Positions 37,114 through 39,310 of a stretch of DNA of 64,000 nt are shown piece after piece. The DNA is from Naegleria gruberi (Eukaryota). The stretch is from NCBI GenBank assembly GCA_000004985.1, contig GG738896.1; one strand, 5' to 3'. Made by a program: the position numbers and the translations under genes. Position 1 is the stretch's first letter. Every line of letters begins with the position of its first letter. A model generated the notes under the pieces. The model ran no database searches, had not been told where the DNA came from, and was given only the letters and a program-made list of their open reading frames with translations.

Positions 37114-39310
37114 ATGTCTCAAAATCTTTGTAATCTTCCCTCTCGAACAGGGCATTCTTGTGTGTTGTACAATAGCCATCATCACAAGAACAATTGTGTA
37201 TACATGTTCGGAGGAACTCTTTCCGATCAAAAAACATTTCCTTCCAATGATTTGATTGAAATTAATGTTGAAAATCAGGAATGGAAGGAATTTGAAAATT
37301 CAAAAGCTTCACCAGGTCCTCTCTTTCATCATTGTGCTTGTTTGCATAAATTGGAAAATCATGATGATAATGAGATGATCATTTTCGGAGGGAAATCAAA
37401 AAAGAAACATTTGCAGAACAAGGTTTGGAGCTTTAATTTCTATAGGAAGGAGTGGAAGTGCTTGAGCGAAGGAGACAAGATGGTATCGCCACGATTTGGT
37501 CATTCGGGTGTAGTTTTTGGAAATACTTTATTTGTTTTTGGTGGATTGGATGAGAAGAAGAAATTATGTAGGAATGAATTGATTGCTTTCAATTTGAAGA
37601 GCAAGCAGTGGAAATTAATTGAAATGAGTGTTTCTATTAGTGGGAGATGTCACCATGCAAGTGTTTTGGATCCAGAGAGTGGTGATTGGTATTTATTTGG
37701 TGGGCAATCTGGAAAGAATGTGTTGAATGATTTTGTGAGAATTAAGTTATCGACCTATGATGAAGGAGCTGCAAAATGTGAATCAGAAACTTTAATTTCC
37801 GATTTGAGTGAAGAATTTTCAAGATTTGGACATTCTATGGTGTTGGAGAAATTCGAAAGTGGATTGAAATTCTACTCAATTGGTGGTTATAATATGAAGA
37901 AGGATTTTTTGGATTGTGTTTCTCTCGATTTGAATAATATTTCAAAAGGATGGCAGATTGAAACTGAACATACTCTTTCAAAAACCTTTGAAAATGTCTC
38001 TCAAGATGTTGGACCTGTATTTCATGTCACTACCCCAATTATTATTACAAAAGAAAACGAAACAATTTTAACATACTTTGTATTTGGTGGACTTTATGAA
38101 AATACTAAACCTCCAAAGACAAAGGAAAAAATCAAGAAAGAAGACATTAAGAAAAAGTCAAAACTGCCCGAGTTTGATATTATCAAATTTGAAAATGAAC
38201 TCAATGATGATATTTTCAGATCTATTCTATCATTTTTGAGTATTCCAGATTTACTGAAATTGGAATTGGTTTGTAAGAGATTGAGAATTTGTAATCTCAC
38301 TACAGAAGATGAATTCTGGAAGGCGTACTATCACGACAGAATTAACTGGCTAAAAGAGGCAAGCAACACCACTAAATTGGAATTCAACAGTCAAACAGGA
38401 ACCTATGACACTATCATTGTTCCTTCTACTTTTTATGATACCTATCTTGATTCCAATAGTGATTATAAGAGGCACTTTGTTGAACTAATTGGAGATTTAA
38501 TGAAAGAAGCTGATAAGAATACAAACGAAAGATTAAACCTGATTAATAGGCTCCCAGACATTCCAAAGTATACTTTTAGAACTAGAGAAGAGGTTATGCA
38601 ACATGAATTACAACCTACTGTCAAGAGTGATATTAAGGTAGTTCTGATAGGTATGTAACTTCTAATAATTTCAATTTAATATTTGGTGATAGGAAATGCA
38701 GCTATAGGAAAGACATGTTTTTATCAAGCATTGAGGGGTATTCCTTTGGAACTTGATTACATTCCAACAGTTTTTGATAATTACTCAGTACAATGTCACA
38801 GTGAGGATGTTACTTTCAATATTGCTCTTTGGGATACAGCTGGACAAGTATGTTATAATGTTTGAATTTCTCTAACAACTACAATTAATTTTGGAATAGG
38901 CTGACTATGATAGACTTCGACCCCTTTCGTATCCACAGACGGATATATTTCTTGTTGGTTTCTGTTGTCTTTCTGAATTATCAATGAAAGAAACCATCTA
39001 TAAATGGAAAAAGGAAATAGAAACCTATATGCCAGATATAAAATTGCCAATCATTCTCATGAGCACAAAGATTGATTTAAGAGACGATCCAGTGCAGAGT
39101 AGAAAACTTTTAGTGACAGAAATGAAAAAGCCAATATCCTACCAAGAAGGTGAATTGTTGGCTAGAAAGCTTGGATGTGCAACATATGTGGAAACTAGTG
39201 CTTTGACAAATGCTGGAATGGATCGTATTTGTGAATTGATAATCAAAACGGTAGACCTTCACCGTTGTGGTGGAATCACAAAGAATGGAAAGAAGTGTCT
39301 AGTTCAATAA
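37114..39310 (+). CDS. Kelch-repeat / F-box / Rho-family GTPase fusion protein with CAAX end (3 exons: 37114-38650, 38693-38847, 38900-39310)
   Basis: Exon 1 carries Kelch blades (MFGGT, IIFGG, FVFGG, YLFGG), an F-box (DDIFRSILSFLSIPDLLKLELVCKRLRI) and the start of the GTPase (KVVLIG). Intron GTATGT at 38651 to the AG at 38691-92. Exon 2 is NAAIGKTCFYQ...ALWDTAGQ. Intron GTATGT at 38848 to the AG at 38898-99. Exon 3 is ADYDRLRPLSYPQTDIFLVGF...STKIDLRDD...ETSALT and ends in CLVQ (CAAX). Phases are consistent (1, 0). Confidence 0.75.

Follow-up and report, generated by a model that had tools for sequence, protein, structure and literature searches.

We analysed a 64,000-nucleotide (nt) stretch of the Naegleria gruberi genome (GenBank assembly GCA_000004985.1, contig GG738896.1), referred to below as the window, and describe one plus-strand gene in it, at 37114-39310, whose predicted product combines a Kelch β-propeller, an F-box and a Rac-like Rho-family GTPase ending in a CAAX prenylation box. 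The window is AT-rich (32.5% GC) and eukaryotic, with short GTATGT...AG introns, and the gene is bracketed by tRNA-Lys (36951-37023, minus strand) and tRNA-Ala (39522-39595, plus strand). Its exons, introns and domains are as follows.

37114-38650, plus strand: exon 1, with the start codon, Kelch propeller, Lys-rich spacer, F-box, linker and first strand of the GTPase (G) domain
38651-38692, plus strand: intron 1, 42 nt, GTATGTAAC...GATAG, phase 1 within the codon of G513
38693-38847, plus strand: exon 2, with the P-loop, switch I and G3; its last codon is Q564 (Rac Q61)
38848-38899, plus strand: intron 2, 52 nt, GTATGT...CTCTAAC...ATAG, phase 0, directly after the codon of Q564
38900-39310, plus strand: exon 3, with the remainder of switch II, G4, the Rho insert, G5, the basic tail and the CAAX box
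37141-38094, plus strand: six-bladed Kelch β-propeller, residues 10-327 (from Pfam, GG doublets and the AlphaFold model)
38095-38178, plus strand: Lys-rich, low-confidence spacer, residues 328-355, with a predicted local distance difference test score (pLDDT) below 50 at residues 334-347 and a length that differs between homologues
38179-38325, plus strand: F-box, residues 356-404, core LNDDIFRSILSFLSIPDLLKLELVCKRLRICNLTTEDEFWK (Pfam F-box and F-box-like)
38326-38628, plus strand: linker of about 100 residues (405-505), modelled by AlphaFold as a helix, a β-hairpin and a long helix (pLDDT ~77-92)
38629-39265, plus strand: Rac-like G domain, residues 506-686, split by both introns (Pfam, PDB and Foldseek)
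39266-39307, plus strand: hypervariable basic tail and CAAX box, with CLVQ at 39296-39307 (residues 697-700) preceded by KNGKK

Spliced in silico, the three exons (37114-38650, 38693-38847 and 38900-39310) join in frame to 2103 nt, that is, 700 codons and a TAA stop at 39308-39310. Exon 1 begins at the first in-frame ATG and supplies residues 1-512 and the initial base of the next codon, that for G513; this residue is the first glycine of the P-loop, and intron 1 splits its codon. In an exact-sequence look-up, the 700-residue product was letter for letter that of XP_002672610.1 (EFC39866.1, UniProt D2VTI8), deposited for N. gruberi NEG-M as "rho family small GTPase"; the gene is already annotated in public databases, under an uninformative name. 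An initial annotation, made from the sequence alone, had read the locus as one gene with two short introns encoding Kelch, then F-box, then a complete Rho/Rac GTPase with a CAAX box, and both this identity and the Pfam matches given below bear it out. Since the products are identical, the exon joins proposed there (38650/38693 and 38847/38900) are those of the public gene model, and the motifs it had quoted (GNAAIGKT, WDTAGQ, TKIDLRDD, ETSALT and CLVQ) are all present. Both introns run GTATGT...ATAG, with canonical GTATGT/AG ends, and the intron of the neighbouring SNARE gene opens with the same 5' site as intron 1 (GTATGTAA). The introns are unchanged in L003, an environmental strain 98.6% identical to the window, and of the six exon 3 differences between the two, five affect the third base of a codon. 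L003 lacks 14 nt close to the start of exon 1 (window 37152-37167), a gap that would put its first ~13 codons out of frame; this could be an assembly error, the use of another start codon or a strain polymorphism.

An annotation artefact, in which an adjacent Kelch/F-box gene and a small Rho gene were misjoined through predicted introns, was the first alternative to be weighed. There is an in-frame stop 6 nt into intron 1, and prokaryote-style gene callers cut the locus into three open reading frames (ORFs) on metagenome contigs. However, exon 1 encodes strand β1 of the G domain (IKVVLIG) and ends in the first P-loop codon, so a separate Rho gene would be without its start, and termination at 38656-58 would divide the G domain between one product with a truncated P-loop and a Rho that has no start. 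The canonical ends of both introns also speak against misjoining. In homologues the junction lies inside unbroken ORFs: the N. fowleri (FDP41_007326) and N. lovaniensis (C9374_004444) genes each have one exon that spans Kelch, F-box and linker and continues into GDGATGKT, and a single ORF reaches DYDRLR in switch II in the environmental relative L004 and GLW in the environmental relative L005. Two homologues carry the whole protein in one ORF, namely L007 (642 residues including the CAAX box) and P0081, whose 720 residues, likewise including the CAAX box, lie on a 2322-bp contig that leaves no room for introns. Intron positions vary by lineage (in G10, between G15 and K16, after GKT[S/C], in W56, after Q61 and at R68), and the frame always continues. 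Two separate transcripts, the first ending at the 38656-58 stop, are thus very unlikely, as the ORFs of relatives cross the junction; the two-gene or mis-spliced model was ruled out on this comparative evidence, which we regard as decisive, and an artefact is highly improbable. By sequence comparison, the fusion is real. In L005 (ENA ERZ929261 contig, 2020-2240), three micro-exons (20, 10 and 13 nt) make up switch II, the short introns between them being of the GTAAGT/GTAATT...AG type; spliced, they read WDTAGPEDYDRLRPLSYP.

The same fusion occurs in related genomes. An exhaustive profile search with follow-up look-ups recovered the order Kelch, F-box, Rho in at least 12 homologues, and the named members are all from Heterolobosea: the window gene and a paralogue in N. 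gruberi (XP_002676274 / D2VI52, 633 residues), one member each in N. fowleri and N. lovaniensis, KAL9648570 and KAL9648013 in Willaertia magna, and KAL0483725 and KAL0485136 in Acrasis kona. About ten further members are metagenome or Logan sequences without taxon. No paper on a Kelch-F-box-Rho or F-box-Rho architecture was found in the full-text literature, subscription-only papers lying outside the scope of that search. As far as these sequences indicate, Kelch-F-box-Rho is a heterolobosean family, previously undescribed. Two relatives have the F-box, linker and Rho domain without Kelch, one encoded directly upstream of the Kelch version in L007 and one partial (P0180), so the F-box-Rho unit may be the core of the architecture.

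Two members deserve separate mention. In L007 (Logan DRR438532 contig, ~52% GC), the genes at 302-1204 and 1223-3151 follow one another on the same strand with 18 nt between them, and both are intron-less, a compact packing unlike that of Naegleria; the first encodes a 300-residue F-box-linker-Rho-CAAX protein without Kelch (FDTAGG, CVIC), and the second the 642-residue Kelch-F-box-Rho-CAAX protein. KAL0485136.1 of A. kona (P0183) is a 621-residue Kelch-F-box-like-Rho-CAAX protein labelled 'ced-10' after the Rac orthologue; for a multidomain protein whose position 61 is Pro, the label misleads.

Profile searches with each segment agreed with the domain assignment. Several Kelch families of Pfam match the N-terminal region, among them PF24681 (E 1.2e-48) and PF24981 (E 2.4e-37), and the region contains six GG doublets. 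An AlphaFold model built on a six-sequence alignment was poor (pLDDT 58). On an alignment of 14 homologues the mean pLDDT was 81.6 and the predicted template modelling score (pTM) 0.51; this model has a six-bladed propeller, a helical F-box, a structured linker and a Ras-like fold, but with a pTM of only 0.51 the orientation of its domains is unreliable. The Kelch region is modelled as repeated four-strand units, with pLDDT mostly 75-96. Its closest solved match, both by sequence (E 3.8e-20) and in Foldseek (E ~1e-18, template modelling (TM) score 0.73), is the Kelch domain of LZTR1, in structures solved with KRAS/MRAS/RIT1-GDP. KLHDC2/3/10 and FBXO42 follow by sequence and fold, and the fold matches are six-bladed Kelch domains. 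These nearest solved relatives (LZTR1, KLHDC2/3/10 and FBXO42) are all cullin-RING substrate receptors.

For the F-box, PF00646 scored 22.7 bits over residues 362-404 of the full protein (cut-off 20.5), and the F-box-like profile PF12937 scored 23.1 bits, slightly below its cut-off of 24.3; when the isolated region was scanned, the scores were 25.0 and 25.8 bits, respectively. As a single sequence the F-box matched solved structures weakly (Skp2 F-box, E 0.03), and a family profile of F-box and linker built from 14 members (A2) matched solved F-boxes of FBXO3 (1.5e-8), FBXW7 (2.7e-6), β-TrCP, FBXL5 and FBXL2. Pfam recognised an F-box in 11 of 14 family members and an F-box-like domain in 10 (best E 2.8e-13). 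Identity of the window protein with its N. fowleri and N. lovaniensis counterparts is 59% in the F-box, 43-45% in the G domain, 38-42% in Kelch and 18-21% in the linker; the F-box is the best conserved segment in the Naegleria clade, which argues for selection on it. Past the F-box, neither Pfam nor the PDB gave a sequence match for the linker. A word-index search with profile A2 gave one weak match and missed known members, so it was uninformative on distribution.

Within the G domain, the following elements were located.

38650 and 38693-38715, plus strand: P-loop GNAAIGKT, residues 513-520
38758-38784, plus strand: switch I, YIPTVFDNY, identical to Rac1
38830-38847, plus strand: WDTAGQ, residues 559-564, followed by A instead of E
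39065-39076, plus strand: TKID, within TKIDLRDD (residues 620-627)
39083-39130, plus strand: Rho insert, DDPVQSRKLLVTEMKK, which aligns with the Rac1 insert
39197-39205, plus strand: SAL, within ETSALT

The Pfam Ras family matches residues 508-682 (E 3.8e-31). The top 60 PDB sequence matches of the domain are Rac1/2/3 and Cdc42 (E 1e-43 to 1e-41), with Rac3 and Rac1 the best, in an alignment that takes in the Rho insert and extends to the basic tail and CAAX box; Foldseek matches Rac1, Cdc42 and RhoA with a TM score of ~0.85. By every sequence criterion tested, the G domain belongs to the Rho family, its kinship being judged from PDB sequence matches and Foldseek. Motifs G1 to G5 are complete in the window protein (GNAAIGKT, T538 corresponding to Rac T35, DTAG, TKID and SAL). 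Its deviations from Rac are D11N, G12A (A515) and E62A, the last of which, already noted in the initial annotation as A in place of E after Q, is the sole difference from Rac1 in switch II.

Thirteen G domains of the family were aligned with Rac1. GKT, T35, DxxG, [TAC]KxD, S[ASN]x and the Rho insert are retained, switch I and II are conserved across the family, and essentially all members have a basic tail with CAAX. At Rac position 61 there is P in eight members, G in three, L in one, and Q in the window protein only; at position 12 there are, in addition, G12S in the N. gruberi paralogue and G12V, together with Q61L, in L006. The latter (JGI 3300002220 contig, 790-2986) carries both classical activating substitutions, in GDVAVGKT (G12V) and WDTAGLEE (Q61L). 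Position 12 or 61, or both, is substituted in 13 of 13 members. Substitutions at these positions of Ras and Rho proteins impair intrinsic hydrolysis and hydrolysis stimulated by GTPase-activating proteins (GAPs), and Rnd and RhoH are constitutively GTP-bound for that reason. With the catalytic pair altered in every member, the domain would be a hydrolysis-impaired, likely permanently GTP-bound module and not a cycling switch; on its motifs, it probably binds nucleotide but hydrolyses it poorly and is GTP-locked. The idea, put forward in the initial annotation, of a switch regulated by its GTP state does not fit these residues.

Eleven of 12 complete C-termini end in C-x-x-[QC], and the twelfth, that of N. 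fowleri, has KKKCLMQ and a stop in the +1 frame. At ~6285-6310 of the N. fowleri sequence L001 (VFQX01000003.1, FDP41_007326), the deposited model ends ...DSKRSV, and the +1 frame reads LKKKCLMQ before its stop, matching the basic stretch and CAAX box of all relatives. The likely cause is either that the assembly has gained or lost 1 nt in the A-run TCAAAAAGAAG or that a frameshift arose very recently, and the deposited C-terminus is probably wrong.

The preserved Rac-type partner surface, with switch I equal to Rac1 and switch II one residue off, bears on what the GTPase could contribute to a ubiquitin ligase. It would suit a protein in which substrates are recognised by the GTP-locked Rac domain itself, which lies C-terminal to the F-box, the usual site of such modules, and would catch Rac effectors or regulators for ubiquitination by a Skp1-cullin-F-box (SCF) ligase; we consider such a role unlikely. 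Its targets would be GAPs, guanine nucleotide dissociation inhibitor (GDI), or CRIB- or formin-type effectors, an assignment just as doubtful. Kelch would then be accessory or regulatory, and might bind its own or another small GTPase as the Kelch of LZTR1 does, a suggestion of similarly low probability. The Kelch-less relatives (the L007 neighbour and P0180) are consistent with this, as they indicate that the F-box-Rho unit can stand alone, and so is the fact that the best sequence and fold match of Kelch is the LZTR1 domain in complex with small GTPases. However, that match is only marginally better than those to KLHDC2/10 and FBXO42 and covers generic propeller features. Kelch is also retained, and conserved at the 38-42% level across Naegleria, as for a binding domain in its own right.

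The nearest precedent for the architecture is RhoBTB, in which an atypical Rho domain is joined to a Cul3 adaptor and auto-inhibition and auto-ubiquitination, not guanine nucleotide exchange factors or GAPs, are thought to regulate the protein; RhoBTB3 carries a CAAX box (PMC4931677; PMC8305917). Like human RhoBTB1-3 and Dictyostelium RacA, the Naegleria protein would place an atypical Rho G domain and a cullin-RING adaptor in one polypeptide. Unlike them, its adaptor is an F-box of Cul1/Skp1 type and not a BTB domain, and its Rho domain is C-terminal, whereas in RhoBTB Rho is N-terminal and tandem BTB domains are C-terminal. BTB (PF00651) was absent from the window protein at E <0.1 in a Pfam scan. 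The G domains of RhoBTB are much more divergent, while that of Naegleria is close to Rac with intact switch regions, and RhoBTB occurs in Amoebozoa and Metazoa, the Naegleria family in Heterolobosea. Membership of RhoBTB was thus ruled out by domain content and order, leaving a functional analogue only, and the difference in lineage is most simply explained by independent invention. By analogy, Kelch-F-box-Rho would be the F-box/Cul1 counterpart of RhoBTB/Cul3.

The comparison with RhoBTB also brings in another explanation, that of a Rac-like signalling GTPase controlled by its abundance, where the F-box in cis would lead to SCF ubiquitination of the protein itself and Kelch would sense a gating ligand. 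RhoBTB is ubiquitinated by its own Cul3 complex (PMC4931677). Furthermore, hydrolysis-impaired atypical Rho proteins are typically regulated through expression and degradation, and the catalytic-pair substitutions are family-wide. On the other hand, auto-ubiquitination of F-box proteins is a common by-product of receptor function, so a receptor role would still be possible, and a conserved propeller of 320 residues would be costly as a mere gate. We regard control by self-destruction as quite unlikely.

The amoebozoan Arcella intermedia has an 863-residue protein, P0181 (UniRef A0A6B2KXW3), in which an N-terminal Rac-like domain is followed by BTB, Kelch repeats and another BTB, and which ends in CSIQ. 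Its Rac-like domain is 77% identical to Rac1 and reads WDTGGPEDYD, so that Pro stands at position 61 here too. The protein resembles a RhoBTB relative into which a Kelch propeller has been inserted.

Other known systems share parts of the architecture. F-box/Kelch proteins (FBXO42, plant FBK, ZTL/FKF1/LKP2) combine an F-box with a six-bladed Kelch of the same broad Pfam type, and ZTL-type proteins add a third, sensor domain and so have three parts. In these proteins, however, the F-box precedes Kelch, whereas in Naegleria Kelch (residues 10-327) precedes the F-box (residues 356-404), and none has a small GTPase or CAAX box; membership of the FBK/FBXO42 type was ruled out, as the order is reversed and a GTPase is added. 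A C-terminal CAAX box on an F-box protein is also found in FBXL2, FBXO10 and yeast Rcy1, where it follows leucine-rich or other repeats, while the predicted anchor in Naegleria is the native Rac-like tail. FBXL2 and FBXO10 are prenylated and ubiquitinate substrates in specific membrane compartments (PMC9988375, PMC11042265). Rnd1-3 and RhoH resemble the family in having Ras positions 12 and/or 61 substituted with nucleotide-binding motifs and CAAX kept, but they are single-domain proteins and not orthologous, the Naegleria family being Rac-like and confined to Heterolobosea and relatives without taxon. In LZTR1 a Kelch propeller, a cullin adaptor and small GTPases are functionally linked (PMC9068208). 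This Kelch-BTB-BACK protein, a CUL3 adaptor for RAS-family GTPases, has the closest solved Kelch by sequence and fold, but it binds GTPases in trans and uses BTB/Cul3. Vertebrate ECT2L, which was among the F-box profile matches, likewise pairs an F-box with Rho-signalling machinery; its partner is a Rho regulator (DH domain) instead of a Rho GTPase, and it has neither Kelch nor CAAX.

Considering these comparisons, we propose that the gene encodes a membrane-bound, prenylated SCF substrate receptor whose location, and perhaps partners, are set by an atypical Rac module, a reading to which we give somewhat better than even chances. The C-terminal Rac-like domain would bind GTP and hydrolyse it poorly, owing to G12A here and to the loss of Q61 in most relatives, and the basic tail and prenylated CAAX cysteine would anchor the protein on a membrane. 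The F-box would dock Skp1-Cul1-Rbx1, and the N-terminal Kelch propeller would present the substrate for ubiquitination. We favour this model because RhoBTB provides a precedent for coupling an atypical Rho domain to a cullin-3 adaptor, because FBXL2 and FBXO10 are precedents for prenylated SCF receptors specific to membrane compartments, and because the nearest solved Kelch domains belong to cullin-RING substrate receptors.

Several observations weigh against the proposed receptor. The window protein keeps Q61 (Q564), so that its predicted hydrolysis defect would be due to G12A alone. In Ras, Q61P lowers GTPase activity yet is reported to be non-transforming, so a locked domain need not be active towards effectors. 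The domains are also arranged unusually: the region C-terminal to the F-box, which holds the substrate-binding domain in canonical F-box proteins, is here taken up by the GTPase, with Kelch on the N-terminal side. Finally, the window F-box has LN for the hallmark LP and KRL for KRW, as do other Naegleria-clade members, and its Pfam scores are barely over threshold.

The absence of hallmark residues in the Naegleria clade and the marginal Pfam scores would also agree with an F-box that binds Skp1 without a cullin, or does not bind it at all, in a scaffold for membrane traffic or the cytoskeleton. The model would be yeast Rcy1, which likewise combines an F-box with a CAAX box and cooperates with Skp1 independently of SCF. 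However, the F-box is the most conserved segment in the Naegleria clade, and the family profile matches bona fide SCF F-boxes. The hallmark P and W are kept in the deeper members L004, ENA45 and P0081, and the P in L007; such canonical LP...W F-boxes score strongly, that of P0081 with a Pfam E of 7e-12. A function outside SCF is accordingly rated as rather unlikely.

Returning to the SCF receptor, a bolder version of it can be put forward tentatively. Heterolobosea may have independently evolved lipid-anchored SCF receptors on a GTP-locked Rac domain, as a Cul1-based convergent twin of RhoBTB, although we hold this to be distinctly short of even odds. It is equally speculative that the Rac module delivers the ligase to sites of Rac signalling, or baits Rac effectors or regulators for destruction. 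With the same reserve, the LZTR1-like Kelch might bind small GTPases, which would make the protein a self-contained membrane device degrading components of Rho signalling.

A Rho GTPase fused to a cullin-ligase adaptor has so far been known from RhoBTB (BTB/Cul3), the mechanism of which is still debated. If the present reading is true, the Naegleria family would be a second, apparently independent solution based on F-box/Cul1, and the union of an atypical Rho domain with a ubiquitin ligase would be a recurrent design. In contrast to RhoBTB, the family has the opposite domain order, keeps the Rac effector surface, conserves CAAX and has lost the catalytic pair throughout; it could thus help to decide whether the GTPase domain contributes localisation, gating or bait. 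The family also matters for the cell biology of Naegleria, whose actin-based motility relies on a large set of Rho proteins and which includes the lethal pathogen N. fowleri. The analysis also corrects annotations, as members currently carry the names 'rho family small GTPase', 'ced-10' or 'hypothetical'. Judged by domain architecture, in a lineage rich in unusual fusions, the family appears to be a clear-cut, conserved union of Rho and ubiquitin-ligase modules, apparently convergent, that bears a uniform signature at the catalytic site.

Among the neighbouring features, tRNA-Lys(CTT) ends 90 nt upstream of the start codon of the fusion gene. Seven tRNA genes lie in the window (35309-35380, 36951-37023, 39522-39595 and 47660-55064), including four copies of tRNA-Gly(TCC) within 7.4 kb. 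The upstream neighbour, at 35795-36833 on the plus strand, is a syntaxin-like SNARE gene (Pfam SNARE 25.9 bits, slightly below the cut-off of 26.8), the intron of which opens with GTATGTAA at ~36001 and closes with ...AACAG at ~36073. The ORF at 39641-40600 on the minus strand was suspected of an F-box-like N-terminus and was dropped for want of a Pfam match. Further away, at 17990-20225 on the minus strand, a 485-residue ORF of DUF4116 repeats (E 1.2e-68) is followed downstream by degenerate Rho-like G-domain fragments (Pfam Ras 29.9 bits). In these fragments WNLACR replaces WDTAGQ, and the stretch ...KPITFEEGEDIARRTGYITYIETSSLK resembles the Kelch-F-box-Rho family; the locus is possibly another multidomain Rho fusion or a pseudo-GTPase.

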